A DNA stretch of 59,004 bases from an uncultured Pseudomonadota bacterium (GTDB taxonomy: Bacteria > Pseudomonadota > Alphaproteobacteria > Rs-D84). Below the pieces are notes generated by a model. That model ran no database searches. It saw only the letters and a list, made by a program, of their open reading frames with translations, and had not been told where the DNA came from. The stretch's first letter is position 1. Each line of letters starts with the position of its first letter. The DNA is taken from the NCBI GenBank assembly GCA_947165335.1, contig CAMVAB010000001.1, forward strand, positions 1 to 59,004, read 5' to 3'. Made by a program: the position numbers and the translations under genes. Shown here piece by piece: positions 10,607 to 36,460 of this stretch.

Positions 10607-10630
10607 TGTATTGACAAAAGAGAAGAGAGA

Positions 10631-20654: not shown

Positions 20655-20997
20655 AAAAACTTCTTATCAAATTGGAATATATTCTGAATTTCTCGCGCGG
20701 ATGTATTTGCGGTTTCATGGGTATAGAATATTAAGCAAAAGATATATTACTGGTAAAAAAACCAATCGCGCAGAAATAGATATCATCGCAAAACATAAAA
20801 ACACTATCGTTTTTGTAGAAGTCAAAGCGCGACAAAATATTCCTGCAGCATGGGACGCTATTACCCCGATTCAATCAGCGCGTTTGCGTCGTGCTGCAGA
20901 AACATATTTAATAAATAAACATTGGCAAGGTGATGCACGTTTTGATGTGATTGTTGTATGCGGACATAAAATATATTGGGCGAAAAACGCAATTTAA
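20644..20997 (+). CDS. yraN: YraN-family (UPF0102) endonuclease-like protein
   Basis: Start MHSKKTSYQIG. The motif EIDIIAK...VFVEVKAR is typical of YraN. Confidence 0.8.
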   Translation: MHSKKTSYQIGIYSEFLARMYLRFHGYRILSKRYITGKKTNRAEIDIIAKHKNTIVFVEVKARQNIPAAWDAITPIQSARLRRAAETYLINKHWQGDARFDVIVVCGHKIYWAKNAI

Positions 20998-21275
20998 TTT
21001 TTTATAACCGCGCTTTTAATTAATGTTACATCTTCTTTGATTCCATCTATCTTTAATTGCAATTGACCTATCCCAGATTCAAGAATTGTTGTTCTGTTTT
21101 CAAGAGATGTTATACGCTGATCCTGTCGTTCAATTTCAGAAAGAGAAGAATCTTGACGGGCGACCCAATAAATTAACCCTGCAATAAAGGCCAACAAAAA
21201 CCATGTATCGCGCAACATATCTATTACACCAATGAAACCTTGTTTTTTTGGCATGTTAATATAATAATTTACCAC
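20994..21275 (-). CDS. Small membrane-anchored coiled-coil protein (phage-module end)
   Basis: One TM helix (TWFLLAFIAGLIYWV) followed by heptad-like repeats. Confidence 0.4.
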   Translation of the reverse strand: MVNYYINMPKKQGFIGVIDMLRDTWFLLAFIAGLIYWVARQDSSLSEIERQDQRITSLENRTTILESGIGQLQLKIDGIKEDVTLIKSAVIKN

Positions 21276-21277
21276 AA

Positions 21278-21481
21278 TTATTGTGTTGGATTATTCCCCC
21301 TTTGAATTAAATTTTCTATTTGGTGAACAAGCGCCTTTTGCGCAGCCCACCAGCGTAATTCGTCATTTGTTGCATTTATCCCCATAACACGTTCGACCGT
21401 CAAAGAACGCAAATGTGCCAGGACTTGTTTTCCAGACGCACACGAAAAAGTACGCGCATATTGTTTTTCTATATCTGACAT
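21278..21481 (-). CDS. Small phage protein, Bbp19-like (tentative)
   Basis: Start MSDIEKQY. The pattern F..ASGKQVLAHL...ELRWWAAQKALV recalls the Bbp19 family of BPP-1-like podoviruses. Confidence 0.4.
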   Translation of the reverse strand: MSDIEKQYARTFSCASGKQVLAHLRSLTVERVMGINATNDELRWWAAQKALVHQIENLIQRGNNPTQ

Positions 21482-21491
21482 TTTATATTCC

Positions 21492-22715
21492 TTATATTGA
21501 CATTTCTTCACGTGCCATTTGTGCAATCGGCGCAATATATTTTAATTCTGCATCACTGTGCAAAGATATATTATCTATTAACCCACGACGCGATAAAATT
21601 TGAAGTCCGCGTTCACACAAAGGTCTTATAAATTCATGCAACAAACGACCGTATGTGGCCCCCAGTATGCGAACCATATCTGCATTACGTGCTAAAATTT
21701 CCGTAGCAGTCATTTCTTTATCTGAAAGCAAACCTAATCTATCTGCCAATAAAGTATGTCTGATTCTGTCGCGTAAATCACGCAACACAATTTGAGAAAC
21801 ATCAAAATCGGCACCACTGGACAAAGGCGTCAACCCAGAACTGCCAACTGCTTTTGGAATAATAGCACCCGGTGTTAAATTGATATTTGACAGGTTTATA
21901 ACACCATCGTCATCTGCTTGCCAAATACCGCTTACTGCGATAGTCGCATTTTTCAAAACTAATTCGACAACTTTGTTCGCTGTTTTTATATCAGGCAAAG
22001 CGCGCAATACAGGACCGCGTCCATATTGTTCACCACTAATCAGCGACCAACGGAAAATTATGTACGGATTCGTTTCAAATGTTCCACGTGCAACAATATT
22101 GTTTTCAATATCGCCACCGATATCAAGCCACGCCGTAAAATCTTGACCTATTAAAGATTGCACTAAACGTATCGGTGTTTGTGGATTATCTTTAATCATA
22201 TTTTTAACATTTTTCGGCAATGTTACATTTGGATACCTGTCTTCTATTTCACCAACAGGCAAAGATGTAGTATGAAATACGGCTCCTGGCAAAATCGCAA
22301 TATCTGTCATAGGAATAGCAGTGAACGAAAATGCTGAATCAGCACCAATTGGGTTTTCTGCCATAAATAAACACGCAGTTCCAAGAACAACTAAATCAAT
22401 ATAACACTGGTGAACAGTCGTATAAAAATTAGAATCATTCAAATGTGCTCGCAACATTGCTGTTGCAACTTCAGCATTTGGCGACAAATCGCTTTCACGC
22501 ACCAAATTTATCCATAATGATTCTGGCGGTGTTAATAACGAATACATAGATGCTGCCAAATTATCCACTGCATCTGATGCGGTTGCATCAAAAAGAGTAG
22601 CAACATCTGCATCATCTGTGGGAATAGTATAACGCATCGCTGATTTCCAACGCGACAACCATATTTCCCTTTCATCTATTGCGCGTTTATATAATTGCAT
22701 AAGATTTTTTTGCAT
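21492..22715 (-). CDS. Phage portal (head-to-tail connector, podovirus type)
   Basis: 407 aa, immediately downstream of the terminase nuclease half. N-terminal pattern resembles T7 gp8-type connectors. Confidence 0.65.
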   Translation of the reverse strand: MQKNLMQLYKRAIDEREIWLSRWKSAMRYTIPTDDADVATLFDATASDAVDNLAASMYSLLTPPESLWINLVRESDLSPNAEVATAMLRAHLNDSNFYTTVHQCYIDLVVLGTACLFMAENPIGADSAFSFTAIPMTDIAILPGAVFHTTSLPVGEIEDRYPNVTLPKNVKNMIKDNPQTPIRLVQSLIGQDFTAWLDIGGDIENNIVARGTFETNPYIIFRWSLISGEQYGRGPVLRALPDIKTANKVVELVLKNATIAVSGIWQADDDGVINLSNINLTPGAIIPKAVGSSGLTPLSSGADFDVSQIVLRDLRDRIRHTLLADRLGLLSDKEMTATEILARNADMVRILGATYGRLLHEFIRPLCERGLQILSRRGLIDNISLHSDAELKYIAPIAQMAREEMSI

Positions 22716-22734
22716 CTTTTTTTCCTTTTGTTTT

Positions 22735-23583
22735 TTATATTTTAAAATCTGTGTTTGCTTTAATTATTTTTGAACATGTGTTTAATGCATGCACCGGACA
22801 AGGCATCATTGTTAATGCACTCGAAACAGCATCCAATCCATCATCATGTTCGACAGATCCTATTGGCGACCATGCTAACATTTCAGACAACAACATTGTT
22901 TGTTTGATTTTATTACGCATATAAAGTCGCCCTGTTGTTAAAATTGGTTCAATTGCATTTAATATTCTGGTTTCTTTTTTTGTATGATTTGAAATTGGCA
23001 AGATATTTATCAAAAATTGTTTTTCTTTGGCTACATTTCGCATAATTTCAGGTAAAGCATTACCGATGCCATTTATTTCTATACCTATTCTTGATAATCT
23101 GTGTTTTTGCATAAAATCAAGAACAGCACCACATTGTGTCGCAAGAGGATGGACATCATCATCTGAAACATTCATATACACAATATCATGTACAAAAAAG
23201 TTTCTGTTTTTATCATCTCTGTAAACCAAAACGCATACGCTGCCATCTGAATTTGCGTGTCCAGAAGAAGGATCCCAATAACATGTATAACCTGTAATGA
23301 CATTATCGCCGATTCGAACATCGTGATAGTCAAAAACATCTTCATAAAAATGTACAGCCCCAGGATCCAAATGTACACGCTCGTCTGGGACATATTCCAG
23401 CATCATCTGGGCAGAAAAATGCCTGGGGCCTACAACCTCTTCTAATTCATGGACTTTTTCCAACGGAAACATCTCTGGCCATGCCGGATTTCCGGCACTA
23501 TCCACTATTGGTATTTTTAAATATTTATACCCCTTTAAAAAAGGTATTGAATTCTGAAAATTTTCGTTTAATCTAATGGACAT
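22735..23583 (-). CDS. Terminase large subunit, C-terminal nuclease half (separate ORF)
   Basis: Starts MSIRLNE at 23583. Has the RNase H-like CYWDPSSGHANSDGS motif. The first 25 aa of the ORF-track call overlap dnaB and are probably not translated. Confidence 0.7.
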   Translation of the reverse strand: MSIRLNENFQNSIPFLKGYKYLKIPIVDSAGNPAWPEMFPLEKVHELEEVVGPRHFSAQMMLEYVPDERVHLDPGAVHFYEDVFDYHDVRIGDNVITGYTCYWDPSSGHANSDGSVCVLVYRDDKNRNFFVHDIVYMNVSDDDVHPLATQCGAVLDFMQKHRLSRIGIEINGIGNALPEIMRNVAKEKQFLINILPISNHTKKETRILNAIEPILTTGRLYMRNKIKQTMLLSEMLAWSPIGSVEHDDGLDAVSSALTMMPCPVHALNTCSKIIKANTDFKI

Positions 23584-25126
23584 GGACTTTACTCCGAAAA
23601 CTTTACCTACGAATTTAGAAGCCGAACAAGCGGTTCTTGCAGCGGTGCTTATGAACAACCGCGCTTTGGAATCTGTGTCTGATTTCTTATTGCCAGAACA
23701 TTTTTCACATCCGGCTCATCAGGAAATCTATAAATTGGCTATGCGTCAATTTAGTGTTGGTATCCCTTTTGATATAATCACTGCAAAAACATATCTTGAA
23801 CAACAGGGGACACTTGAAAGTGTCGGCGGGGTTGAATATTTAACAAAATTGGCTTCTGCTGGATCAACAGTTGTAAATGTTGAACATTATGGTCGTATTG
23901 TTTTTGATAACGCTCGTCGTCGTGATTTGATAAATCTTGGACAATCTATTATTGACGATGCCTATACCGAAGATTTAGACAAAGATGTTAACACCCAAAT
24001 CGAATCTGCTGAACAAAAATTGTTTAATTTAGCATCAACTGGCGAATCTGAACATAACACTGCAACTTTGGCAGATGCTTTAAGTGCGGCACTTAAAGAG
24101 GCCGAAACAGCGTACAAAGCAGATGGAAAAATATCTGGTTTGACAACTGGTTTAGACGATTTAGACAAATCTATTGCTGGTTTACATCGTTCCGATTTAA
24201 TCATCATTGCAGGACGTCCTGGTATGGGTAAAACAACATTGGCAATGAATATCGCATTCAATGCCGCAAATGCTATTTTAAACGGTCGTGCAAACAGCCA
24301 ATTCAAAGGCGCAGTTGCATTTTTTAGTCTTGAAATGTCGCAATCTCAATTGGCATCTCGTGTGTTATCTTCTCAATCAAAAATACCTTCGTCCCGCATG
24401 CGTGAAGGTACATTATCAGACGAAGATTTCACAAAAATGACACAATATGCGGACGCTTTGTCTAAGGTTCCTGTTATAATTGACGATACAGCTAATATGT
24501 CTGTTCCTGCGATAAAAACACGTGCTCGTCGTATTGCGCGTCAACATGGTGGCATTGCTTTAATTGTTATCGACTATTTACAATTGATGACTTCACCTGG
24601 GGGGAAACACAACGATAACCGTGTCCAAGAATTATCTGAAATCACTCGTGGATTAAAGATGCTGGCCAAAGACTTAGATGTGCCTGTTATCGCATTGTCC
24701 CAATTATCGCGTAAAGTAGAAGATCGCGATGACAAAAGACCTATATTATCCGATTTGCGTGAATCTGGTTCTATTGAACAAGATGCGGATATTGTTATGT
24801 TTACATACCGCGAAGAATATTATCTGGACGGACGTTCACCAGAAAAACGTTTATCAGGCTTGGCATCTGAAAACGCACAACAGCATTGGCAAAACCGCCT
24901 TGACCGTTCAAGAAACAAAGCAGATGTTATTATTGCTAAAAACCGTCATGGAAAAACAGAAACCATACACCTAAGCTTTAATGGTGAATATTCATTGTTC
25001 GATAATTTGAACGAATTCACAAAAAATGTTCCTGATTCTGATTTTGATGTTCCTTTTGTATCATCGACTGACATGGACACTCAAAATATTTCCGATGTAA
25101 ACGATATTCCTGACGATATCATTTAA
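23576..25126 (+). CDS. dnaB: Replicative DNA helicase DnaB
   Basis: N-terminal LPTNLEAEQAVLAAVL and Walker A GRPGMGKT. RecA-like C-domain plus an acidic tail of roughly 40 aa. Confidence 0.9.
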   Translation: MDMDFTPKTLPTNLEAEQAVLAAVLMNNRALESVSDFLLPEHFSHPAHQEIYKLAMRQFSVGIPFDIITAKTYLEQQGTLESVGGVEYLTKLASAGSTVVNVEHYGRIVFDNARRRDLINLGQSIIDDAYTEDLDKDVNTQIESAEQKLFNLASTGESEHNTATLADALSAALKEAETAYKADGKISGLTTGLDDLDKSIAGLHRSDLIIIAGRPGMGKTTLAMNIAFNAANAILNGRANSQFKGAVAFFSLEMSQSQLASRVLSSQSKIPSSRMREGTLSDEDFTKMTQYADALSKVPVIIDDTANMSVPAIKTRARRIARQHGGIALIVIDYLQLMTSPGGKHNDNRVQELSEITRGLKMLAKDLDVPVIALSQLSRKVEDRDDKRPILSDLRESGSIEQDADIVMFTYREEYYLDGRSPEKRLSGLASENAQQHWQNRLDRSRNKADVIIAKNRHGKTETIHLSFNGEYSLFDNLNEFTKNVPDSDFDVPFVSSTDMDTQNISDVNDIPDDII

Positions 25127-25133
25127 ATTTTTC

Positions 25134-25170
25134 TTGCCAAAGCCATAAAAATTGACTAATATTTTGTCAA
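25134..25170 (+). promoter_or_regulatory. Putative promoter with overlapping inverted repeat (operator) of the XRE gene
   Basis: TTGCCA, 17 nt, TAATAT. The inverted repeat TTGAC-N9-GTCAA overlaps the -10 box. Confidence 0.45.
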
Positions 25171-25191
25171 CATATCTCTAAGGAGTCATAA

Positions 25192-26199
25192 ATGGCACAA
25201 GAAGAAATCATTTTTCCAAATAATATTCGCAACATTCGTGCAGCCAAAGGCTTGAAAATGACCGAATTAGCAAAACGCGCAAATTTGTCTTTGTCTGCTG
25301 TTTCAAAAATTGAAAAAGGCGTTCGTCGTTTAAATCAAAAACAACTTTTGAATGTTTGCACTATATTGGGTTGCAAATTATCTGATATCTTTATTCATGA
25401 ATCAGATGCAGTTGCACAAAATTGGCAAAATGAAATCAAACGCCGTTTAACAGACAACGAAGGCAGTGGTCTTAAAATTTTCGGCAGTGGTTTACGCAAA
25501 ATCCGTCAACGTGCTGAAAAAACCATCGCAGAAGCTGCAAAAGCTTCAAAAATGACACTGTCTGTATATCATAAAATAGAAGTCGGTCAACGCGAAGTAT
25601 ACGAAAATGAAATCGATGTTTTGGCCAAAGCTTTTGGATATACAGCCACGCAACTTTTTGATGAAATTGCTAAACTTTACAGTACCGGTGAATTAACAAA
25701 ACAAATTAACAAAGTTAAAGAACGCGTTAAATCTGTATTGGAACCTGTAAATCCAATATCTGGTTTAGATATTCGTGATGGATTATACGGCGCACAATTA
25801 TACGATAATGCACGTAAAAAATTGGTTCCTGTATTTGGTAAACCAAATGGCAAAGCAATCAAATTGAAAAAATCAGATGAAACCATGATTGTTGCACCAA
25901 CAGCACTCGAAGGCCGCAATGGTATTTACGCAGTTATTCCAAATTCGAAACGTTTGGCTGGTTTTATCCCTGAAACTTCATATGTTTTTGCTGATGCTAA
26001 TACAAAACCAAAGGTTGGTGATTTGGCAGTTTGCATAGATGCAGATTTTTCAAAATTAGATTCTGAAGAAATTGTTGACGCACAAATTGTCGTTGTTCGC
26101 CAAGACACACATGGTAAAACATACGGTCATATATCTAATCCAGAAGAAAAAGTTTCTGGCAAAACAATGCATAAAATCGTTATGATTGTTATGCAATAA
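25192..26199 (+). CDS. Transcriptional regulator with two XRE-type HTH domains and a C-terminal beta-rich domain
   Basis: Two HTH_3-like segments (IRNIRAAKGLKMTELAKRANLS... and LRKIRQRAEKTIAEAAKASKMT...). The C-terminus is vaguely S24/LexA-like but has no clear Ser/Lys dyad. Confidence 0.7.
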   Translation: MAQEEIIFPNNIRNIRAAKGLKMTELAKRANLSLSAVSKIEKGVRRLNQKQLLNVCTILGCKLSDIFIHESDAVAQNWQNEIKRRLTDNEGSGLKIFGSGLRKIRQRAEKTIAEAAKASKMTLSVYHKIEVGQREVYENEIDVLAKAFGYTATQLFDEIAKLYSTGELTKQINKVKERVKSVLEPVNPISGLDIRDGLYGAQLYDNARKKLVPVFGKPNGKAIKLKKSDETMIVAPTALEGRNGIYAVIPNSKRLAGFIPETSYVFADANTKPKVGDLAVCIDADFSKLDSEEIVDAQIVVVRQDTHGKTYGHISNPEEKVSGKTMHKIVMIVMQ

Positions 26200-26228
26200 A
26201 ACGCATATTAACAACGGAGAGAGAACAT

Positions 26229-26870
26229 ATGCCACAACAAGCACACATAATAGCACAAAGATTATTGAATCTTTATCGCCAAGAGCATGTTATAGATGGT
26301 GGTTGGGCCGCTGTTAACAAGGTTTTTATCCAAGAATCTAATGATTCAAAAGTCATCAGCGAACTCGAATTGTTGCCTACTGGTAAACGGTTAATTGCAC
26401 ATATAAATAATTTACGCAGCGGAAAAACACCTATGGATTCTATTGATAAAGATTTGCTGCCATATGGTGGTACCATGTCAGGCCAAGATGTTATATTTAA
26501 TTTATCAGATGAAGATAAATCAGAATTAAAATCTGCGTTGAATGATTTTCAACCAACACCCGAAGGATTAGAAAAAATCAAAACAATACCTGTCGTAAAA
26601 AAATTCGGCAACGATTGGATCGAAGATATAAAATCTTCCATTGCATCTGATCGAGAAATGCTTGAAAAATGGAAAGCTGTCGCAAAAACAGATAAAGCAT
26701 ATCGCCTTTGGGATTCTGCTAACCAATTATTATCAGAAACTTTGACAGAACGCAATCGTGCTCAAATCCAAGCAGACATGCCTGAATATGAAACATATTT
26801 ACCAATGTTTGGCGAAGCGGGCGAATCAGTTTTACTTAAATTGCGCACATTTGTATCATCACTTTCATAG
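26229..26870 (+). CDS. Hypothetical protein (213 aa)
   Basis: Intact ORF with a GGAGAGAGA RBS. No recognisable motif. Confidence 0.45.
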   Translation: MPQQAHIIAQRLLNLYRQEHVIDGGWAAVNKVFIQESNDSKVISELELLPTGKRLIAHINNLRSGKTPMDSIDKDLLPYGGTMSGQDVIFNLSDEDKSELKSALNDFQPTPEGLEKIKTIPVVKKFGNDWIEDIKSSIASDREMLEKWKAVAKTDKAYRLWDSANQLLSETLTERNRAQIQADMPEYETYLPMFGEAGESVLLKLRTFVSSLS

Positions 26871-26873
26871 AAA

Positions 26874-27473
26874 TCATTCTGTTTTATATATCGTATCCTG
26901 CGTATGCGGTGTCCCAATATAAATCATTGTTCCATGTGGTGATAAAATAAAATCTAGTTCTCGTAATCTTTCCCGTAAATTGATTCGTTTTTGTTGTGTA
27001 TTACATGTATTCGGCACTTCTACGTCATCACAAATTATCAAATCAGAGCGTAAACCGGTAATATTTCCCGATATTCCCTGACAAATAACAGACGGTTCTC
27101 GAATTCCGATTGGACGTTTAATAGTAATCTTATGGGACCCCCACTCTTTTTTTACATCAGGCAAAATATCGCTGCACCAGGGATGATTTTCTAAAATATT
27201 TTTTATATGCGAAACCATTCGTGATGCTAAACCTGTTTCGGCAGATAAAATCAGTATTCGTGTTTGGGGTTTATAATACAAAACGCACGCAGCAAAAACA
27301 CCTACTACCGTTGATTTACCTGAATGTCGGAAAGCGTTTAATAATCCCCTGTGTGGTTCATTGTTAAAAACATCTATTAAAAATTTCATTATTTGTTCAT
27401 GATGTTTTGGCGTTTTAAATCCCAACACTTTATTCCATTCGTACAAAAAAGATAACGCATCTGAAGCATTCAT
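26874..27473 (-). CDS. Terminase large subunit, N-terminal ATPase half (separate ORF)
   Basis: Walker A FRHSGKST and Walker B LIICDDVE. Ends ...GTPHTQDTIYKTE followed by a stop. Confidence 0.7.
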   Translation of the reverse strand: MNASDALSFLYEWNKVLGFKTPKHHEQIMKFLIDVFNNEPHRGLLNAFRHSGKSTVVGVFAACVLYYKPQTRILILSAETGLASRMVSHIKNILENHPWCSDILPDVKKEWGSHKITIKRPIGIREPSVICQGISGNITGLRSDLIICDDVEVPNTCNTQQKRINLRERLRELDFILSPHGTMIYIGTPHTQDTIYKTE

Positions 27474-27487
27474 TGTCTTTAAATTAT

Positions 27488-27838
27488 TTATCCGGCTATT
27501 TTATCTATGTTTGACAACCAATTTTTAACCAGATTTGGTTTTTTTACTTTTTTTGTTTTTTTGATTTTTTCTAAATTATCTTCTCGTTTTTCATCGTATG
27601 GTTTCGAAGTTTCAGAACGCAATCTTTTTAAAACCGCTTCTTCTGATAAACTGTCGCCTTTGTTTCCCGATGCGCCATATTTAGCGCGTTGCTCGGATAA
27701 AACTTTTTTTATCAAATTGGTTTTTGTTTCTTCGTCTTGCGCCATTTGTGATAATATTTTTTGCCGTTCTGTTTCTGCTGACTTTTTTGATTCTTTATAT
27801 TCTAAAACTTTGGTTACATCTGATACTAGTTGTCCCAT
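27488..27838 (-). CDS. Lys/Glu-rich small phage protein (function unknown)
   Basis: 116-aa charged helical protein located between the tail-tube and terminase genes. Confidence 0.4.
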   Translation of the reverse strand: MGQLVSDVTKVLEYKESKKSAETERQKILSQMAQDEETKTNLIKKVLSEQRAKYGASGNKGDSLSEEAVLKRLRSETSKPYDEKREDNLEKIKKTKKVKKPNLVKNWLSNIDKIAG

Positions 27839-27855
27839 AAAAAACTCCTTTCATT

Positions 27856-29568
27856 TTATATTAAATACCAGCCATCTGTCGTTACAGACAATATGGTCGC
27901 TGGCAATTGTTCATCACTTGATACAGACCACAAAGGTTGCATGACATCAAAATGAATTCCTAATAAATTTATAGATAAATCACCGGTATACCCGCTGTTG
28001 CTTATATCATAATTATCATTTGGTATCACTACACGATTTCCATTTACAAAAACAGTCTTGGTATCTTTCAATCGCAAAGATATTTTATGCGTCCTTATTT
28101 TTCGTGGTGGATGATTATTAACAATCATAGGTAACGCCGATACACAATACGAAAAATCGAATGTTGTTGCGTCTTGCAAACAACTTGAATCAAATTTTTC
28201 TAGATAACATGTATTTTCACGCTTTACTATTACATAAGTTGAATCGCCTAAAACCGCTACATACTTAAAAGAACCATCTGTTTTATATGTGCCCCATGCT
28301 GCAATTTCTGTGTTAGCGTATTTATTCAACACAGCCATATATCCGTCAGACATAACAACATATAAACGATGTTCTGTTGAATTATATGCGATACTGATTG
28401 GATTATCCATCATATGTTTCGCATAACAACATAAATCTGTTGCATTATAAGTTTGATTCAATACATCCATATCTAATTCACGAATATCTTTACCTGATTT
28501 TGATATGAAAACTGTTGATCCTTCTATTTGCTGTGGTGGTAAATATCTTGTAACAACACTTCCAACTGAAGTATGCTGTTTAATATTTACGTTTGATGGT
28601 GTCAAAGGCGTATTTGAAATCGCCCATTCACCAACAGATGTTAATATTTGTAAATTATCACTACTAATAACAGTAGAAATTTGATGATGTTGCGCAGACA
28701 ACAATGATACAAATATAGCTTCATCGTCTAAACCTGTCCCGACATCAAAATTATTGTATTGGCTTGTCTTGGATAACCAAACGCTGTTCGGCAAAGATGT
28801 TGTTCCACCAAAAACAAGTCGGTTTTGATGAAAAGATACAGATATCGGCCAACCGCGTTTATTACTGAAAGAGGCTTCTTTCCAATCTTTTAATGGTTGT
28901 GCCGGCAAAGTATACGGAGAATAAGTATATACTGTCGCCACTCGAGAAGTTTGAACAGATTCAACAATCCATTGTTTATTATCCACAAACAATCTGATGC
29001 CTACCCAATCTATAGACCACATATCCTGATCTGTTGTAAATGTGGCATGATTATTATCGATACTACTTGTAGTAATTGTAATTGTGATATTTTCTGTATC
29101 ATTAAACCGCGAAAACGGTATATTTATACTAGAATCTTGGTTTGCATAAAAAGAAAAATTCGTTAATGAAAAATCAGTATCCGTCTTTGTTAGTACCCGC
29201 GGTTGATAATCAGGATGCACAAAAAATAAAGAATTGAATCTCTGGGCATATTGTAAATTTTTTAAATCTGTTGTTTCCCATGGTGCTATCAAAGTTTTTA
29301 TTTTTACATCATTTTGATATACAGATATCGCCTGTCGCGAGATAACCAACAAATACTTTTCTGATTCACTGATTATAAAAGGTACCAGTATTGCATTATT
29401 TGACACCGCTTCTATGCTTTTTAATCCATTTCTGCGTTTTAATGCCCCAGATTGTAAAACGTTCATATTTTCAAGTTTAGAAACCCCATGCATATTATTT
29501 ATTGCATAAAAATCTGGGGCTACTTCACCACAAGAAAAAATATTTTGGGTTTGAAGAAAATTTCCCAT
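27856..29568 (-). CDS. Tail tubular protein B-like (T7 gp12-like nozzle)
   Basis: 570 aa, follows the gp11-like gene. N-terminal pattern (...LQSGALKRRNGLKSI...) resembles gp12. Confidence 0.5.
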   Translation of the reverse strand: MGNFLQTQNIFSCGEVAPDFYAINNMHGVSKLENMNVLQSGALKRRNGLKSIEAVSNNAILVPFIISESEKYLLVISRQAISVYQNDVKIKTLIAPWETTDLKNLQYAQRFNSLFFVHPDYQPRVLTKTDTDFSLTNFSFYANQDSSINIPFSRFNDTENITITITTSSIDNNHATFTTDQDMWSIDWVGIRLFVDNKQWIVESVQTSRVATVYTYSPYTLPAQPLKDWKEASFSNKRGWPISVSFHQNRLVFGGTTSLPNSVWLSKTSQYNNFDVGTGLDDEAIFVSLLSAQHHQISTVISSDNLQILTSVGEWAISNTPLTPSNVNIKQHTSVGSVVTRYLPPQQIEGSTVFISKSGKDIRELDMDVLNQTYNATDLCCYAKHMMDNPISIAYNSTEHRLYVVMSDGYMAVLNKYANTEIAAWGTYKTDGSFKYVAVLGDSTYVIVKRENTCYLEKFDSSCLQDATTFDFSYCVSALPMIVNNHPPRKIRTHKISLRLKDTKTVFVNGNRVVIPNDNYDISNSGYTGDLSINLLGIHFDVMQPLWSVSSDEQLPATILSVTTDGWYLI

Positions 29569-29583
29569 GATGAAATCCTTTGG

Positions 29584-30117
29584 TTAAAATCTTGAATTTA
29601 TTAAAGAGAATTTATCTATGTTTGATTGATTCGTTGAAGTGGTACTATCTATGAATTTTGCTGATTGGTATTCGGATTCATATAGCGCACTTATCATTCT
29701 AAACACGTTTGAATCACCAAGCAATGGTATACAAAATTCAACTGCTAACTTGGTAGCAACCAAAGAAGCAAAATAATTTGGAAAATCTTCGGGTTCGCTC
29801 TTTACAATTGCCAATATTTCTATTGTTTCCCCTGATGTATCTATTTTATTACCCATTATCTGTCCTTCGCTTTTCAAAACACGTAAAACATTTTCCGGAA
29901 TAACAAAATCACCATCAGTATTTCTGATTAAAACTATTTTTTTTGTTGCGAATCGCCATGGAAACATTGCCAACAAAGTATCGACAGTAGAATCAAACAA
30001 AGTTCTTGATAATTGTGCAGCAACTGTATCTTCATGCCAGGATTGTATAGGTTTTTCGCCTAATTTCAGCAAAGCCATTGAACATAAATCTATTTTCGTA
30101 AACATATTGAAATCCAT
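29584..30117 (-). CDS. Tail tubular protein A-like (T7 gp11-like adaptor)
   Basis: N-terminus ...LCSMALLKLGEKPIQSWHEDTVAA...FPWRFA mirrors T7 gp11 (...NDILASIGEPPVSTLEGD...GWTFN). Confidence 0.55.
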   Translation of the reverse strand: MDFNMFTKIDLCSMALLKLGEKPIQSWHEDTVAAQLSRTLFDSTVDTLLAMFPWRFATKKIVLIRNTDGDFVIPENVLRVLKSEGQIMGNKIDTSGETIEILAIVKSEPEDFPNYFASLVATKLAVEFCIPLLGDSNVFRMISALYESEYQSAKFIDSTTSTNQSNIDKFSLINSRF

Positions 30118-30125
30118 TTCTTAAA

Positions 30126-30152
30126 AAACGGGCCGATAAATATCGGCCCGTT
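30126..30152 (-). terminator. Rho-independent terminator after the capsid and 76-aa genes
   Basis: Hairpin aacgggccgata-N3-tatcggcccgtt followed by a T-run on the minus strand. Confidence 0.75.
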
Positions 30153-30172
30153 ATATATAAATAAAAACATTA

Positions 30173-30403
30173 CTATGAAAGCGCGCCTACACTTACAACG
30201 CCATCTGCTACTGTGATAACTTTGATAGTAGATCCATTTGAACCGTTAATCAAAATAATATCACCTGTGCTCATCAACGTTTTAACACTTGAGAAATACC
30301 CCGAAGTAGTTAATGCAGACAATGTTTCGTTTGCTTTGTAATGCCACAATGTAAATCCGTTTGCATACGCAATTACAGATAAATTTTTATTTTGAAATGC
30401 CAT
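30173..30403 (-). CDS. Small beta-rich virion protein (possible head decoration/spike base)
   Basis: 76-aa ORF directly downstream of the capsid gene. Confidence 0.4.
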   Translation of the reverse strand: MAFQNKNLSVIAYANGFTLWHYKANETLSALTTSGYFSSVKTLMSTGDIILINGSNGSTIKVITVADGVVSVGALS

Positions 30404-30426
30404 ATGATATTCCTTTTGGTTATATT

Positions 30427-31254
30427 TTATGCAGCATCGTCATCGCATTTAATGCGAACAATACCTTCATCGTCGATTAACACAGCGCCTTGGGACATAC
30501 TGTTGCTGATAAAGTGCGCAGCACGTTCACCATGCCATGTGATATCAGTTTTAACTTCTTGACCACATGCATGACCAATACTTGATGCATGATAAATAAA
30601 GCAATCACGATCATCTGTGCTTGCCAATGGCAAAGAATTGCACAAGATCCAATTAACGCCTAACCATCTTCTTGATTCGCAACCGTCAACTAATGGTGTT
30701 GCACTGCCAACATAATCAGCAGAAACAAATTCATCCAAAGCCAACAATTCATTCCATTGGTGAACACCAACAACTGCGAATCTACGACCATCATCTGGAA
30801 CATCATTTTGATTTAATTTTTCCAATGCAGCCATAATCAAGGCTTTTGTTAATCCAGTAGAATAATCACCAACATATTGTGTTGCATTGTTCATAGCAGA
30901 AATAATCAGTTCATCTGTCTTGCGACCCAAAGCGTAAGCGCCAGCAGAAGCAACTACACGACGTTCATCAACGTTAGTTTTTAATTCATCCAACGAATCA
31001 ACCCAATCACCTGCATAGTAATCTTGCAATACACATTCAACTGGTGTGTGATTTAAATTCATCACTGGAACAATACCATGACGAGATTTTGTACTGGCAA
31101 TACCTTTGCCAACTTTTTGGAAAGTTGTTGAAGCGCCTACAACACCAGATTTGCTGCGAATAGTAGAGCGCAATTTTGTGCCCATTTGCTGATAAGCTAA
31201 ATGAACATCTGCTTCAAATTGTTTTATAAACACTTGATCTACAGAAAGAGACAT
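30427..31254 (-). CDS. Major capsid protein (podovirus-type)
   Basis: 275 aa, positioned between the scaffold and tail-tube genes, and followed by a strong terminator. Family recall is only moderate. Confidence 0.6.
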   Translation of the reverse strand: MSLSVDQVFIKQFEADVHLAYQQMGTKLRSTIRSKSGVVGASTTFQKVGKGIASTKSRHGIVPVMNLNHTPVECVLQDYYAGDWVDSLDELKTNVDERRVVASAGAYALGRKTDELIISAMNNATQYVGDYSTGLTKALIMAALEKLNQNDVPDDGRRFAVVGVHQWNELLALDEFVSADYVGSATPLVDGCESRRWLGVNWILCNSLPLASTDDRDCFIYHASSIGHACGQEVKTDITWHGERAAHFISNSMSQGAVLIDDEGIVRIKCDDDAA

Positions 31255-31492
31255 ATAAAATCCTTTTTGTTTTAATTAAAAAATGCCCGAACGGGCACGA
31301 CACAATTTTGATTTATGGTTATGCAAAATAATTTGCGCCAAAAAAACAAAACAAAATACTGGTCCACAAAATGGATTGTCCAATAAATAATACAGTGAGA
31401 CTTTGCAATCGCACTGTAAAATTTATCAAAAAAATCCCCAGAATCTAAAGATTCTGGGGACAATAAAAACCACGCAAAAACGCGTGAAATTC

Positions 31493-31783
31493 TTATTTTT
31501 TCTTTGCTACTTTTTTAACTGCTTTTTTTGCAGCTGGTTTTTTAGCAGGTGCTTTTTTTGCAACTGGTTTTTTTGCAGCTACTTTTTTTGCAGGTGCTTT
31601 TTTAGCAACTGGTTTTTTTGCAACTACTTTTTTTGCAACTGGTTTTTTTGCAGGTGCTTTTTTAGCAACTGGTTTTTTTGCTGCTGGTTTTTTAGCAGCT
31701 ACTTTTTTTGCAGGTGCTTTTTTTGCAGCTGGTTTTGCAGCTGGTTTTTTAGCGCATGCACATTTTTTCTTTAAACCGAACAT
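31493..31783 (-). CDS. Histone H1-like Lys/Ala/Pro repeat protein
   Basis: About 17 tandem AKK(P/V/A)(A/V) pentapeptides, encoded by 15-nt DNA repeats. Confidence 0.6.
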
Positions 31784-31880
31784 TTGTCTCTCCTTGATTA
31801 AAGTTCTTGGCTAGAACAAAAATTTTTTTGTTCTTGTTTTATATTTTATATGAAATGAAATAAATAGTAAAGAATAAAAA

Positions 31881-32540
31881 TTATTTTGAATATAATTTTT
31901 TAAAACCATTTTCTATTTTACGAACATATTCTGGATCTTGATCTCGCCAATATTTTGGATCACGCATCATATCACGCAACATATCGTCAGTTAAATTTTC
32001 TGTTGCATTTTTATCTGTTAAAACTGTTGGTTCAAAAGATTGCATCATCTTGTATATGCCTTGAATTCCCTGGGGTGTAGAACACAATTCATCGAAAGCA
32101 TCTGCGGGTAAAAACTTTTCACCGAACGCATTTATTTCACGCATTGCATCATTCATTTTTTGTGTTGAACCAAAAAAATTTTTTAATTCATTTATTGCAT
32201 TATTTTGATTTTGTAATTCAAATAAATTTTTTAATGTCGGTTGTAAAAATTCTTCAGCAATAGAATAAATTTTTTCAACTTGTTTTGAAGTTAAACCAAT
32301 TTCATGAAATTTTTCACGCACCGATTCGTTATCAAACAAATCATTTTTTGGATATTCGTTTGCTGTATCAGGCACACCAATTGCATGATTAAATTTTTGT
32401 TTTGCATTTTCATCGTCATCATCTTTTGGCAACGATATCATACTGCTCATCTTTTTTTCGAGTTCACAATATGATTTAACCAGCGCAGATGTATTTAATT
32501 CGCCATTATCATCTAAAAACTTTTCTGGGATTTGTTCCAT
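31881..32540 (-). CDS. Capsid scaffolding/assembly protein
   Basis: Acidic helical protein. N-terminus IPEKFLDDNGELNTSALVKSYCELEKK is typical of podovirus scaffolds. Lies upstream of the capsid gene. Confidence 0.55.
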   Translation of the reverse strand: MEQIPEKFLDDNGELNTSALVKSYCELEKKMSSMISLPKDDDDENAKQKFNHAIGVPDTANEYPKNDLFDNESVREKFHEIGLTSKQVEKIYSIAEEFLQPTLKNLFELQNQNNAINELKNFFGSTQKMNDAMREINAFGEKFLPADAFDELCSTPQGIQGIYKMMQSFEPTVLTDKNATENLTDDMLRDMMRDPKYWRDQDPEYVRKIENGFKKLYSK

Positions 32541-32731
32541 TATTTCTTTCCTTTGGTTGAAGATTCTTGTTTAAGAAAATAAATGCCGGATAATGTAAAT
32601 ATTGTTTGAAGCATTGTAAAAATATCTTCATCACCTATTAAATAAGCCCCGACTGCAGACAAAATACCTATACCAGACACAATATATGTTTTTTTACCTT
32701 TTAAATAACCACCATGTATAAATTTGTTCAT
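32540..32731 (-). CDS. Holin-like small membrane protein (63 aa)
   Basis: Start MNKFIHGG with an AAAGGA RBS. Two hydrophobic helices and a charged C-terminus. Adjacent to the hydrolase gene. Confidence 0.45.
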   Translation of the reverse strand: MNKFIHGGYLKGKKTYIVSGIGILSAVGAYLIGDEDIFTMLQTIFTLSGIYFLKQESSTKGKK

Positions 32732-32747
32732 TAAAAAATCCTTTGAT

Positions 32748-33158
32748 TTATAAATAAAACAATATATCTGAATATTCCGCAATATAACCACGCGACATCG
32801 CCCAATCTGGAATGATGTCTGTATGATGAAATTTTGTTGCACCAAAAACATAGTCTCGTAAATTACCATGCAACATTGTTTGAACAACTCTTAAACACAT
32901 TTGGAATTTTTTATCGGATGCTGGCACAGAAAGATTTTTATATCGTTTTGATTTTTTGTTTAATGCGTCGAAAGTGTCAGTGTCTTTTGCAATATCATCG
33001 AAAGATTTATTATATTTAATATGAATATTATAAATCATAGATGCAAACGCTTCGACCACAGCCAACGATTCAGCATTTGTTTCTGCATATACTATGCGTG
33101 CCAGTTTATATTGAATGATTTTTGAATCATCAACATTTGTAATTAAATTTAAATGCAT
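32748..33158 (-). CDS. Cell wall hydrolase (SleB/Hydrolase_2-like endolysin)
   Basis: Start MHLNLITN. Pattern ARIVYAETN...FDALN...GATKFHH...IPDWA is typical of the family. Confidence 0.6.
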   Translation of the reverse strand: MHLNLITNVDDSKIIQYKLARIVYAETNAESLAVVEAFASMIYNIHIKYNKSFDDIAKDTDTFDALNKKSKRYKNLSVPASDKKFQMCLRVVQTMLHGNLRDYVFGATKFHHTDIIPDWAMSRGYIAEYSDILFYL

Positions 33159-33304
33159 GGTTAAATCCGTTTTGTATAAAAAAAGCCGCACAAAAACTGT
33201 GCGGGATAAAAACAAGGGTAAAAAAAATCCGCTAAAACGCGGACAGACTTCTTACTCTTGATGCATACTATAATATCACAAATTGCATTAAAAGTCAAGA
33301 ATAT

Positions 33305-33970
33305 TTAAATACTGATTTCATCGGCATAGGTTAACATATATTTACTGTCGCATCTTAAAACCAACGCACCATCTTCATTTAAACCAATTAATTCAGCGAC
33401 TTTTCCATGATATTGAATTGTTTTATTTATTGCCGCAGCCAATTCAGTCCAACGTTCACGAACGATTGAAAAATCGGCACAGCGCCATTTATCTATTTTT
33501 TTCATCAACACAGCCAACACATCATTAACAGAAACTTTTGCATATTCAATCATCTTGGTTGTTTTGTATTCTTTGACAGTTGGACAAGTTTCAACATTTA
33601 TACCGATACCAATGATCACAAAATTTTGAGAATATTCTATTAAAATACCGCTTATCTTTTTTCCATTTATTAAAATATCATTTGGCCATTTGATTTGTGG
33701 TGTTATACCAAAAGCAATCATAGTTTCAGCAACCGCAACAGCAATAGAATAAGATAATTTTGGGTCGCGTTCACCTGTTTTGAATATGAAAGAAGCGTAT
33801 AAATTACCATGATGAGAAACCCATGTGCGTTTATAACGACCGCGCCCTGCACTTTGCGCCAAAGCAGTCACAACAGTTTTATTGGTGGCTTCGCCATGGG
33901 CGATTAAATCATGAGCATAATCTTGAGTACTTGGGATTTTATCTAAAGATATTAATTTATATGCGTCCAA
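33305..33970 (-). CDS. birA: Biotin-[acetyl-CoA-carboxylase] ligase (class I, no N-terminal HTH)
   Basis: GRGRYKRTW biotin-binding loop in a 221-aa protein. Confidence 0.88.
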   Translation of the reverse strand: MDAYKLISLDKIPSTQDYAHDLIAHGEATNKTVVTALAQSAGRGRYKRTWVSHHGNLYASFIFKTGERDPKLSYSIAVAVAETMIAFGITPQIKWPNDILINGKKISGILIEYSQNFVIIGIGINVETCPTVKEYKTTKMIEYAKVSVNDVLAVLMKKIDKWRCADFSIVRERWTELAAAINKTIQYHGKVAELIGLNEDGALVLRCDSKYMLTYADEISI

Positions 33971-34382
33971 TCTTATATTTCCCGTCTATGTTTTGTATGA
34001 TATCACATCCATATGTTTTTCGCAATTGATAAACAGCATTTTCCACTGCATGCGTTTTTACATTTGGCAGAACACCAATCATATCTTTTAATTCACGCAT
34101 TGTAATATTTGGATTTTTATAAAGAAAAACTATGATTTTATGCTGCAATGAAGGCAAAACAACATCACTTCCGAAAACATCATTTATAATGTCTTTGTTT
34201 TCAAAAGCCGCCAAAATGGCAGTTTGCAATTTCGGAACTGAAATAGGTGCTTTGATTTTAATATCATCGAACACGACATCTGCGACATTTGGCGAATCGA
34301 CCATATCTGCACCCAAATCAGTCAGAATACGATACCAACATTCATCCGAAGCAAAGATTTTTATATTTTCCAACATACCCAC
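33957..34382 (-). CDS. Hypothetical protein with C-terminal winged-helix (BirA-N-terminal-like HTH)
   Basis: The C-terminus ...NITMRELKDMIG...VENAVYQLRKTYGCDIIQNIDGKYKI resembles the BirA/HTH_11 wHTH. Overlaps the birA start by 14 nt. Confidence 0.45.
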   Translation of the reverse strand: MGMLENIKIFASDECWYRILTDLGADMVDSPNVADVVFDDIKIKAPISVPKLQTAILAAFENKDIINDVFGSDVVLPSLQHKIIVFLYKNPNITMRELKDMIGVLPNVKTHAVENAVYQLRKTYGCDIIQNIDGKYKIGRI

Positions 34383-34425
34383 ACAATAGCCGATTTCAGC
34401 GCATTGTGCAAGATTTTATTATATA

Positions 34426-34668
34426 CTAGATAGTATGCGAATTGGACGGGATAAATTTAGTAAAATCTTCGAGATTTGCACCAGTAGACGCTAATATTTT
34501 TGAAATACTGTTGGTTGACGGCCATCTGGGTTGACCTTGTTTAGACCAACGTTTGCTTTTATTAAATGTTGTTGGGTCCAGACCGCTACACTTTGCAAGT
34601 CCCGAACAAGACATATTGTGTTCCATAGCAAATTTTTCTATTGCCGACCAAACATCATCATGTGTCAT
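34426..34668 (-). CDS. CI/LexA-like repressor N-terminal HTH domain only (no S24 peptidase domain)
   Basis: ...SCSGLAKCSGLDPTTFNKSKRW...PRWPSTNSISKILASTG is typical of the N-terminus of alphaproteobacterial S24-family repressors. The ORF stops after about 80 aa. Confidence 0.6.
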   Translation of the reverse strand: MTHDDVWSAIEKFAMEHNMSCSGLAKCSGLDPTTFNKSKRWSKQGQPRWPSTNSISKILASTGANLEDFTKFIPSNSHTI

Positions 34669-34843
34669 AGTATTTTTCTCCTGTAACTGCATCAGTTTCC
34701 CAATTCAACATCCATATATTACGGCTTTTTCAAGCAAATTTTCATTTGTTTGTTTTCCTAGGTAAAAAGGCAGAAAAATATACAAAAAAATTTTTTTGAC
34801 AAAAATACTTGACAAATCGTATTTTATGTATTACATTTCGATT

Positions 34844-35037: not shown

Positions 35038-36060
35038 TTACATCCGCAACAAATATTTTTTCACGAACCAGCCTGAATTCAACTGAATTGCCAAATTTAA
35101 AAAATATTTTTTAAAATTGAAACAATTCGCCCATCTGGTCCAACCAAACAAAGACGCCATCTGTCCGATTGAAAGTTCATTAAAATCTTTGTGTTGAATT
35201 ATGTTTATAATTCTGTTTTTCAATCTTTTTGCTGTTTTTTTTCGCATTAAAATAAAACCATTGAAATGCCGATAACCTATGAAAGGGATTCCATCCAAAG
35301 TTCTTTTCAAATCAGCCTTTGATAAAATCATACTTAAATTTTGTTCAAGAAAGTTTTTAATTTTACTTTTCATGGAATGCAGTTGTTTTTTATCATTGCT
35401 GTACAAACAGAAATCATCGCAATATCGAATATAATCACGACAATGTAAATCATGTTTTACAAATTGATCAAGTTCATTTAAATAAACATTTCCCATCCAC
35501 TGCGAAGTAAGATTACCAATAGGCAAATTAGTATTTCCCCCCACAGAATCTATTATTTCAGATAACACACGCATTATGCGTCTGTCATGAATTTTACGTT
35601 TTACGATATTTTTCATAATTTCATGGTTAATAGATGGGAAAAATTTCCGTATATCACATTGTAAAACATATTTATTGCGCCGTATGAAGTGCATAGTTTT
35701 TTGTGATGCCCCCAAAAGTCCACGTCCAGGGATACAAGCATAAGAATCTTTGATGAAAGATTTTTGCCAAATTGGCCCCAAAACATTTATCAAAGCATGA
35801 TGGACAATATGGTCGGGATACAATGGCAATTTATAAATTATGCGTTGTTTTGGTTCATAAATTTTGAAAGTTTTATAACATGAAGTTTTATATTTACCGG
35901 TTTTAAGACTATTTCTTAATTTTTCTATAAATTCATCTTTGTGTGCCAGAAAATGTTTAACAGATTTCTTTGATTTTTTGCTTTTAATAGCCTTTTTTAC
36001 AGCTAATTCGAAATTTTCTTTTGAAATGAATTTGTCCCACAAATTTTTATAAGTTTTCAT
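35038..36060 (-). CDS. DGR-type reverse transcriptase
   Basis: Motif 4 IGNLTSQ (the DGR signature I/LGxxxSQ), YCDD catalytic box, N-terminus NLWDKFISKENFELAVKKA. The ORF-track start at 36096 is also possible. Confidence 0.9.
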   Translation of the reverse strand: MKTYKNLWDKFISKENFELAVKKAIKSKKSKKSVKHFLAHKDEFIEKLRNSLKTGKYKTSCYKTFKIYEPKQRIIYKLPLYPDHIVHHALINVLGPIWQKSFIKDSYACIPGRGLLGASQKTMHFIRRNKYVLQCDIRKFFPSINHEIMKNIVKRKIHDRRIMRVLSEIIDSVGGNTNLPIGNLTSQWMGNVYLNELDQFVKHDLHCRDYIRYCDDFCLYSNDKKQLHSMKSKIKNFLEQNLSMILSKADLKRTLDGIPFIGYRHFNGFILMRKKTAKRLKNRIINIIQHKDFNELSIGQMASLFGWTRWANCFNFKKYFLNLAIQLNSGWFVKKYLLRM

Positions 36061-36108
36061 TTTTATTCTTCTTTTGTTTTCTTGAAACATCACCACAAAA
36101 AGAACACT

Positions 36109-36435
36109 TTAAGAAAAACTGTAATATCTTTGTACATGAACAACGGTTCCAACGAAAGGTATTTGGTTTGAAAATTCTTTTACCTGTTTAGTTAAAACAC
36201 TGCTGCCTGTAAACAAAACACAAACTTCGCCATCCAATAAGAATTGTAATTGCAAACATTCTGTGCCGTCTTTTTGTTTTGAACGTCTTATTCTGTAATC
36301 GATAACTTTGATTTCGCGGTTAACAATTTCATCAAGACGCTTTTTATTCCCAGGCATAGGCGTTTGATCTTTTGCAAAAACCGAAAATTTTGGACATTCT
36401 GTATTTTTTATTTTTTCAATTTCATCAAATGTCAT
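36109..36435 (-). CDS. 108-aa ORF between TR and RT (candidate non-Avd DGR accessory protein)
   Basis: Intact ORF with a purine-rich stretch (AAAGAGAGAAAA) just upstream of the ATG. Predicted beta-rich and basic (KVIDYRIRRSKQKDG). No resemblance to the helical Avd. Confidence 0.5.
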   Translation of the reverse strand: MTFDEIEKIKNTECPKFSVFAKDQTPMPGNKKRLDEIVNREIKVIDYRIRRSKQKDGTECLQLQFLLDGEVCVLFTGSSVLTKQVKEFSNQIPFVGTVVHVQRYYSFS

Positions 36436-36460
36436 TTTTCTCTCTTTTTTTTTGTATATT

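Follow-up and report, generated by a model that had tools for sequence, protein, structure and literature searches.

The 59,004-nucleotide contig CAMVAB010000001.1 of an uncultured alphaproteobacterium of the order Rs-D84 (assembly GCA_947165335.1; this whole stretch is called the window) carries on its minus strand a T7-type large terminase subunit gene (terL, product TerL) that exists as two separate open reading frames (ORFs), and 3.3 kb of opposite-strand genes, among them dnaB, separates the two. The ORFs of the window and their translations were checked against the coordinates of an earlier sequence-only reading, and all of its ORFs, positions and motifs, as well as the opposite-strand cassette between the halves, were reproduced in the ORF table. 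The genes concerned, and the junction at which two of them start, are as follows:

26874-27473, minus strand: TerL-N, 199 amino acids (aa), with Walker A RHSGKST, Walker B LIICDDVE including the catalytic Glu, and motif III GTPH; ATPase core piece of a T7-type TerL.
22735-23583, minus strand: TerL-C, 282 aa from MSIRLNE, containing CYWDPSSGHANSDGS.
23576-25126, plus strand: dnaB, an alphaproteobacterial-type replicative DNA helicase.
25192-26199, plus strand: helix-turn-helix (HTH) regulator with two XRE-type HTH domains and a C-terminal domain of ~130 aa.
26229-26870, plus strand: p213, 213 aa, an all-helical, clade-restricted orphan.
23581-23603, both strands: interlocked starts and a near-invariant stretch, with CATG at 23581-23584 holding the TerL-C ATG (minus) and the conserved dnaB ATG (plus).

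The usual TerL has both domains in one chain of ~450-590 aa, whereas here we found ORFs of 199 and 282 aa lying 3.3 kb apart. TerL-N ends in ...GTPHTQDTIYKTE followed by a stop, which in the window stands 2 codons past ...TIYK, and the mechanical ORF of TerL-C extends upstream of its ATG to a TTG at 23658. The TerL-N matched the NCBIfam model NF033889 (termin_lrg_T7) with 221.7 bits (cut-off 150) and T7 gp19 with an E value of 5e-22, and the TerL-C matched the Pfam families Terminase-T7_RNaseH-like (32.3 bits, cut-off 27) and Terminase_6C (26.8 bits, cut-off 22.6). On the PHROG 38 (TerL) profile, TerL-N and TerL-C covered positions 274-459 and 468-703, and on the termin_lrg_T7 profile positions 4-190 and 333-499, respectively. 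When joined, the two pieces were colinear with seven full-length TerLs of 480-510 aa, with about 4-7 surplus residues at the cut (~2 on the N side and ~4 on the C side), and the Walker A GKS, CDDVEV, GTPH, WDP..D, E-N-G and DDGLDA motifs were all invariant in this alignment. Thus, TerL-N and TerL-C are contiguous, non-overlapping parts of one T7-type TerL and not two terminases; the colinear alignment and the adjacent profile matches bear out the earlier proposal of one terminase in two intact same-strand ORFs, for which contiguity of the halves had been singled out as the point to check.

The sequence-only reading had further placed the split at the boundary of the ATPase and nuclease domains, and here it needs correction. 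TerL-N residues 5-197 align to residues 18-211 of T7 gp19 (PDB 4BIJ, 8DGC), and the cut falls ~10 residues past motif III (IGTPH), which corresponds to gp19 residue ~212 and lies within the ATPase region. The nuclease signatures come late in TerL-C, where Terminase_6C starts from residue 102 and the T7 RNase H-like model covers residues 149-220. The family profile put TerL-C residues 30-63 on gp19 257-290 and residues 190-226 on gp19 440-476, matches that are weak but colinear. The first ~70-100 residues of TerL-C therewith correspond to gp19 ~213-300, between motif III and the RNase H-like fold, so that residues 1 to ~70 make up the post-motif-III ATPase/lid-linker segment and residues ~72-260 the RNase H-like nuclease. 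TerL-C was modelled by itself with AlphaFold (AF2) on an alignment of 43 sequences, and the model showed a confident RNase H-like domain at ~72-260 and a predicted local distance difference test score (pLDDT) below 50 at residues 1-39 and 54-69; the low confidence over residues 1-70 would fit a segment that needs TerL-N to fold. In Foldseek, the best PDB match of this model was the terminase of the T7-like phage PhiV-1 (8dgc_E, E 1e-10), followed by the nuclease domains of the terminases of human cytomegalovirus, P22, RB49, herpes simplex virus 1 (pUL15), SPP1 and Sf6. The cut is thus inside the ATPase region, between the motif III helix and the remaining strand and lid-linker segment, at a loop whose length varies among intact TerLs. 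The closest TerL from outside the clade (P0242, 51% identical, on a contig of 1.2 kb) runs uninterrupted across the site as ...TIYDTTSEGFLRDFHILKIPIL...

Both junctions of the cassette proved as tight as had been claimed from the sequence. The TerL-C ATG is the complement of 23581-23583 and dnaB ATGs lie at 23576 and 23582; the former is an extra in-frame ATG of the window, two codons upstream of the start that is conserved in the relatives (23582). The geometry of the start codons through the CATG palindrome was the same in 53 of 55 species, the TerL-C start ATG was invariant in relatives, and the sequence AAGTTTT(C/G)GGAGTAAAGTCC preceded it in 53 of 55 species, with GGAG 8 nt before the ATG. 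The near-invariant stretch of ~20 nt therefore holds the Shine-Dalgarno sequence GGAG of TerL-C inside codons 2-8 of dnaB. Third-position conservation was 0.80 over the first 10 dnaB codons as against 0.56-0.70 elsewhere in dnaB, and 0.83 and 0.79 over the first 20 TerL-C codons as against about 0.62 for TerL-C. With no intergenic DNA between the TerL-C/portal and dnaB operons, each must be transcribed from inside or across the other, and the codons of TerL-C must contain the promoter and leader of dnaB. At the other junction, the convergent genes are 3 nt apart, with 26870 as the last base of the p213 stop and 26874-26876 as the TerL-N stop. These two stops overlap by 4 nt in about half of the species and are a few nucleotides apart in most others (range -25 to +64). 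Across species, TerL-N stops 2-9 codons past ...TIY(K/R/Q), a drift as expected for a free C-terminus. The promoter and terminator scan found no terminator between TerL-N and p213, and it gave no assignable promoter for the TerL-C/portal or dnaB operon, promoter-like sites being no commoner than in shuffled sequences.

The dnaB product scored 622.7 bits against the NF006606 equivalog model (cut-off 540) and 519.7 against TIGR00665 (cut-off 385), whereas its score of 415.5 against the phage_DnaB model TIGR03600 fell under the cut-off of 498.65, and its best phage match in tblastn did not exceed 50% identity. By these scores, dnaB is the host replicative helicase, as the sequence-only reading had taken it to be, and not phage-type, and it is very probably the only copy, given genomes of <1 Mb and one orthologue per locus. 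An S24-like C-terminus as in LexA/CI was considered for the HTH regulator and rejected, because no family matched even at E 5; outside the HTH region no sequence match was found in PDB. The p213 belongs to no family in Pfam, PHROG or NCBIfam. A protein search found its homologues (210-218 aa, nearly all 212-214) only within the clade, and its AF2 model, all-helical with a pLDDT of 74.5, had no fold match in PDB or BFVD.

Rs-D84 genomes measure 0.75-1.0 Mb and have a normal coding density (PMC12306168). A scan that took a single genome for each GTDB species gave 65 species-level metagenome-assembled genomes (MAGs) from rumen, horse, other animal and termite guts, and 17 window proteins were searched by tblastn against the 65 loci with 10 kb on either side. 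The order TerL-N, reversed p213-HTH-dnaB, TerL-C-portal was present in 56 of the 65 genomes with 3250-3874 nt between the pieces, and most of the other nine were contigs that stop before TerL-C; an intact terL was found in none of the 65. The common synteny is lipB, hydrolase, scaffold, capsid, tube A, tube B, p116, TerL-N, cassette, TerL-C, portal, Bbp19-like gene, p93, yraN ... bamA. A protein search with TerL-N returned 908 matches, the best 120 of which were 198-212 aa long and 83-100% identical and came from gut "Alphaproteobacteria bacterium" and Ca. Enterousia MAGs, and the TerL-C homologues were mostly 282 aa. Recurrence of the same layout in 56 independent species-level assemblies goes far beyond chance and rules out misassembly and a strain-specific prophage. 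The element is therefore an order-wide, vertically inherited cluster and not, as had been supposed, a prophage of this one genome; the comparison of relatives, which the sequence-only reading had pointed to, found both the split and the position of dnaB to be common property of these 56 species.

Three loci from deep lineages, L044 and L069 (termite-gut MAGs) and L051, differ from this layout. The p213 and HTH genes still follow TerL-N, dnaB has been relocated (beside recG in L069, upstream of the cluster in L051), and host genes (DUF5131, recG and a 799-aa ORF) come after TerL-N-p213-HTH. Since TerL-N-p213-HTH was kept while dnaB moved, the TerL-N/p213-HTH junction is the oldest part of the arrangement and dnaB is dispensable to it. 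Two irregular copies were also seen. A 1.5-kb insertion separates TerL-C from the portal in L053 ("Rickettsiales bacterium Gsp477_bin73", 10388-11931), where the dnaB and TerL-C starts are not interlocked, and P0134 has a 402-aa TerL-C with an internal tandem duplication of ~120 aa, probably an assembly artefact.

Selection was measured as the pairwise Nei-Gojobori ratio of nonsynonymous to synonymous divergence (dN/dS) on codon alignments, using pairs with dS of 0.1-1.5. The ratios were as follows:

portal 0.061
TerL-N 0.084
capsid 0.085
dnaB 0.089
HTH regulator 0.105
lipB 0.153
tube A 0.171
TerL-C 0.173
tube B 0.187
p116 0.207
p213 0.216
scaffold 0.24
hydrolase 0.27

The dN/dS was low in both subclades, and no internal stop was present in 65 TerL-N or 55 TerL-C copies. 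Median amino acid identity to the window was 88% for the portal, 85% for the capsid, 81% for TerL-N, 74% for dnaB, 71% for lipB and 68% for TerL-C. The distances of phage-derived and host genes were correlated (Spearman 0.65-0.76), as expected for vertical co-divergence, with slopes <1 for TerL-N, portal and capsid, which have diverged more slowly than the host genes. Both terminase halves are under purifying selection, which answers the question that the sequence-only reading had left to dN/dS. It had offered either a two-piece terminase or a fixed dead prophage; conservation and dN/dS support the first and refute the second.

In an exhaustive search over clusters at 50% identity, a gap was noticed between the TerLs of the clade (>68% identity) and all others (at most 51%). 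The non-clade matches were mostly 450-580 aa, the shorter ones resembling fragments. We examined 26 prophage loci from IMG/VR and about 30 metagenome loci (G+C fraction 0.30-0.72, some contigs of 0.2-0.9 Mb), and every one had a single terL ORF; homologues of dnaB, HTH and p213 were found in none of these related loci. Two gene orders occurred outside the clade, namely portal, Bbp19, scaffold, capsid, tube A, tube B, (p116-like, tailspike), TerL, hydrolase, and TerL, hydrolase, portal, scaffold, capsid, tube A, tube B. The Rs-D84 order is a circular permutation of this late module without early genes and with the host cassette inside terL. An origin of the cut by integration (attP in terL), or of the cassette as a remnant of a phage early region, was considered and rejected, because the related phages have no dnaB, HTH or p213 near terL and dnaB is host-type. 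The nearest cultured phages are of Autographiviridae type (TerL about 36% identity) and pelagiphage podoviruses (portal about 33%). Two "Bacteriophage sp." records from human faeces were also matched. One (L073, MT838907.1) has portal, scaffold, capsid (63% identity), tube A and tube B in T7 order and is a genuine relative of the ancestral phage; the other (L072, MT835812.1) has a dnaB 50% identical to that of the window and none of the phage genes, and may be a bacterial contig deposited as viral.

The phage-derived genes around the split terL of the window run in the order hydrolase, scaffold, capsid, tube A, tube B, p116, TerL, portal, Bbp19-like and p93, and they were identified as follows:

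32748-33215, minus strand: SleB-like cell-wall hydrolase, upstream end of the phage-derived cluster.
31881-32540, minus strand: scaffolding protein, T7 capsid assembly protein family.
30427-31254, minus strand: major capsid protein (Phage_capsid_2, E 5e-74).
29584-30117, minus strand: tail tubular protein A, T7 gp11-like (Pfam family Tube; phrog_394).
27856-29568, minus strand: tail tubular protein B, T7 gp12-like (phrog_376, E 2e-87).
27488-27838, minus strand: p116, a small basic coiled-coil protein directly upstream of TerL-N.
21492-22715, minus strand: portal or head-tail connector (Head-tail_con, E 4e-81), directly downstream of TerL-C.
21278-21535, minus strand: Bbp19-like small protein.
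20994-21275, minus strand: p93, a conserved 93-aa protein at the downstream cluster end, abutting the host gene yraN.

Family scans of all ORFs in 20994-34382 found only structural, lysis and packaging genes besides the host genes lipB and dnaB, and no integrase, excisionase or phage replication module. The p116 matched no family; in the related phages L104 and L109, its positional homologue immediately precedes the intact TerL, and by position p116 is a candidate for the small terminase. The homologue of the SleB-like hydrolase comes after TerL in related phages. Three strong terminator-like hairpins with T-runs were noticed at 31283-31487 (minus strand), within the 626-nt spacer that separates the scaffold gene from the capsid gene downstream of it (one example being GTCCCCAGAATC...GATTCTGGGGAT with TTTTTTT after it). 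As an attenuator or a site of processing, they could set the ratio of scaffold to capsid. In relatives, an ORF of 107-148 aa occupies this spacer.

Just upstream of lipB and the hydrolase, the region 33957-34692 (minus strand) holds a 141-aa ORF with a weak winged-helix match and an 88-aa Cro/C1-type HTH ORF (HTH_26, E 4e-4), and L001 and L004 have counterparts in the corresponding position (139-145 aa and 80 aa); both are candidate regulators of the late cluster. Further along, a complete-looking diversity-generating retroelement (DGR) spans 35038-37786. Its reverse transcriptase (35038-36096, minus strand) matched phrog_1423 with E 8e-101. The template repeat (36704-36838, 135 nt) shares 92% identity with the 3' end of a secreted-looking ORF of 192 aa (37208-37786), in which the variable repeat lies at 37215-37349, and where the template has Asn codons the target has codons for Tyr, Gly, Ser or Val. 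Next to it lies a paralogue of 156 aa (37770-38240). The reverse transcriptase was absent from the equivalent flanks in 65 of 65 related genomes; it is therefore a recent acquisition outside the phage-derived cluster.

These results together suggest that the cluster is probably a domesticated, vertically inherited, GTA-like (gene transfer agent-like) remnant of a T7-supergroup podovirus with a two-chain terminase, fixed in Rs-D84. In the ancestor of the clade, a local rearrangement would have put the host operon (dnaB, the double-HTH gene and p213) on the opposite strand into a variable surface loop of terL past motif III, and the break would have been healed by a stop codon for TerL-N and by an ATG and Shine-Dalgarno sequence for TerL-C. 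Since then the terminase would have been made as two polypeptides, with the Walker A/B and motif III core in TerL-N and the remaining ATPase/lid-linker segment and the nuclease in TerL-C. The two would re-associate non-covalently, the first ~70 residues of TerL-C completing the ATPase/lid on the TerL-N core, and this motor together with the portal, scaffold, capsid and tail-tube proteins would fill podovirus-like heads, the particle being probably GTA-like. The back-to-back overlap of the operons might in addition couple particle production to shut-off of dnaB in the manner of an excludon. The origin by rearrangement, the reassembly of the pieces, the production of particles, their role as GTA and the antisense coupling are all what we infer from the genes. 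Hosts with genomes of <1 Mb (PMC12306168) would probably not have retained 12 kb of phage remnant that served no use. Genes for replication or integration are missing from the cluster, which occupies one chromosomal site and has co-diverged with the host, and GTAs are therefore its closest functional analogy.

Several observations weigh against this explanation. The T7 internal-core genes (gp14-16) and a receptor-binding tailspike were not recognisable in the cluster. In related prophages, a 676-aa pectate-lyase-like tailspike lies directly upstream of the intact TerL (L076, 5947-7977). What remains in Rs-D84 is a gene of ~180 aa between p116 and TerL-N (for example, L001 9475-10023 and L069 9472-10014), which matches the N-terminal anchor (~110 aa) of the 676-aa protein with 31% identity (E 3e-16). 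This anchor is present in 29 species and absent from 35 of 64 including the window, where the gap is 27474-27487, and the receptor-binding part is missing throughout the clade. Delivery of DNA to recipient cells is uncertain with the tailspike truncated or lost; selection on the other cluster genes was equally strong with or without the anchor. In L044, L051 and L069, TerL-C and the portal are not next to TerL-N (none within 8-10 kb), and in these lineages the two pieces may have become unlinked, or TerL-C may have been lost. The scan identified no promoter for the TerL-C/portal operon.

It is possible, although we consider it rather unlikely, that the cluster is functional without being a classical terminase system or without its particle being a GTA; the pieces could have separate ATPase and nuclease roles, or the cluster could be a helper-dependent defective phage or serve DNA release or another use of the host. 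The stronger constraint on TerL-N than on TerL-C (81% versus 68% median identity; dN/dS 0.084 versus 0.173), the loss of the receptor-binding part of the tailspike and the persistence of TerL-N in L044, L051 and L069 without TerL-C and portal nearby would all agree with this. However, TerL-N, TerL-C, portal, scaffold, capsid and both tube genes are co-conserved under purifying selection, for which DNA-filled tailed heads are the simplest account, and the catalytic acids of the nuclease are invariant.

Programmed excision, by which the cassette would be removed and terL rebuilt in a particle-producing, terminally differentiating cell as in the skin/sigK system of B. subtilis, is improbable. The halves lie on the same strand with a discrete segment between them, and the loss of dnaB would be tolerable in GTA-like producer cells that lyse. 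On the other hand, no recombinase family was found in or near the cassette by the Pfam, PHROG and NCBIfam scans, and direct or inverted repeats at the two junctions gave chance-level matches only, with no att-like or insertion-sequence-like ends. Moreover, such elements have no need of the own stop of TerL-N or of the invariant ATG and conserved Shine-Dalgarno sequence of TerL-C, and to join the pieces exactly, both the stop and the start codon would need to be deleted with the frame preserved.

A dead fixed prophage, whose terL was destroyed by the host insertion and whose decaying ORFs are kept only for the intervening dnaB, is still less probable, and we regard it as very unlikely. An inserted essential operon would indeed anchor the region, the tailspike is truncated or lost, and early genes, replication genes and an integrase of phage type were absent from the family scans. 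Decay is nevertheless contradicted by both pieces being intact in all 65 and 55 species, respectively, with dN/dS of 0.08 and 0.17 and invariant catalytic motifs, by a capsid and portal that are more conserved than host housekeeping genes, and by host genomes of <1 Mb.

Trans-splicing by a split intein or intron into a single mature chain is hardly credible. Terminase genes of phages often carry inteins or introns, and split-intein "fractured genes" are known (PMC2677866), but the ~4-7 surplus residues at the cut leave no room for intein halves of ~100 and ~35 aa, Rfam found no intron in the window, and the flanking DNA is p213 and dnaB coding sequence of the other strand. The lack of repeats, recombinase, intein room and Rfam intron thus makes excision, protein splicing and RNA splicing all unlikely. 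The probability of an assembly misjoin or chimeric contig at 23580 or 26872, conceivable for a metagenome-assembled window and named in the sequence-only reading as what might undo it, is negligible, because 56 species-level MAGs share these junctions, as do many further metagenome contigs from studies and assemblers independent of one another.

Returning to the domesticated podovirus remnant, we tentatively propose, as an extension that is doubtful when taken whole, a new podovirus-derived GTA-like system of order-wide distribution with a two-chain motor, in which firing of the TerL-C/portal operon silences dnaB and the regulator by antisense and vice versa, making a switch between growth and terminal particle production. 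There is a realistic chance that this is a new, independent GTA lineage. If the proposal is true, a podovirus-derived lineage would be added to the small number of known cases in which phages were independently domesticated into particles owned by the host, and the keeping of 12 kb of phage genes in genomes of <1 Mb would argue for a strong benefit. It would also be a natural experiment on the terminase motor, with an ATPase that was cut past motif III and has still been selected over a long time, and subunit complementation in a viral packaging ATPase would become directly testable. The zero-spacer, start-interlocked arrangement with dnaB would be an unusually clean candidate for antisense coupling of chromosome replication and a lytic programme. 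For annotation, it would mean that hundreds of ~200-aa "phage terminase large subunit" and 282-aa "hypothetical" genes of gut MAGs are halves of one conserved machine and not prophage debris.

The comparison with known systems places the pieces near the T7-type TerL (gp19; NF033889; PDB 4BIJ, 8DGC), which they resemble in all respects examined apart from the single chain, including fold, motifs and the neighbouring T7-type portal, scaffold and tube A and B genes, whereas the Rs-D84 form is predicted to be two polypeptides with 3.3 kb of opposite-strand host genes between their ORFs and the phage relatives examined have a single ORF. The literature that was searched yielded no split terminase without inteins or introns, the matches to "two separate genes" having concerned endolysins, and no phage-like element or GTA in Rs-D84 or Enterousia. 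With GTAs (RcGTA of Rhodobacter and many Alphaproteobacteria; BaGTA of Bartonella), the cluster shares head, tail and packaging genes without replication or integration genes, interleaved host genes, and, as found here, a fixed chromosomal site, clade-wide vertical inheritance and purifying selection; in all genomic features examined it resembles a GTA. To our knowledge, the characterised GTAs are siphovirus-like. The Rs-D84 cluster, unlike them, comes from a T7-supergroup podovirus and has its tailspike truncated or lost. An identification of the element as BaGTA was considered and rejected, since BaGTA has an intact terL of 1344 nt (PMC3610622) and a lambda-like run-off replication (ROR) module.

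Split-intein fractured genes differ in that the TerL pieces carry no intein fragments. Phage genes in pieces are also known from nrdA of Aeromonas phage Aeh1, split by mobE, and from the T4 topoisomerase gp39/gp60. They are alike in that a one-chain enzyme is encoded as two separately translated ORFs with presumed non-covalent reassembly, and unlike in the intervening DNA, which in theirs is a mobile homing-endonuclease gene of small size within a phage genome, and here an essential host operon that runs on the opposite strand of a bacterial chromosome and is stable across an order. In the skin element of B. subtilis, which interrupts sigK, the intervening DNA is removed by programmed excision. 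The likeness is a discrete segment that interrupts a gene needed only in a terminal cell fate, and the difference is a cassette without recombinase or junction repeats, in which each terL piece has its own translation signals. Excludon-type pairs of divergent, antisense operons are known in Listeria. As in these, operons of plausibly opposing roles (replication versus lytic particles) must overlap at their 5' ends here and their predicted transcripts would be mutually antisense; the overlap of the start codons themselves (CATG) is tighter than in the described excludons. We thus rate the Rs-D84 system as a combination of known kinds, a domesticated phage cluster and a gene in pieces.

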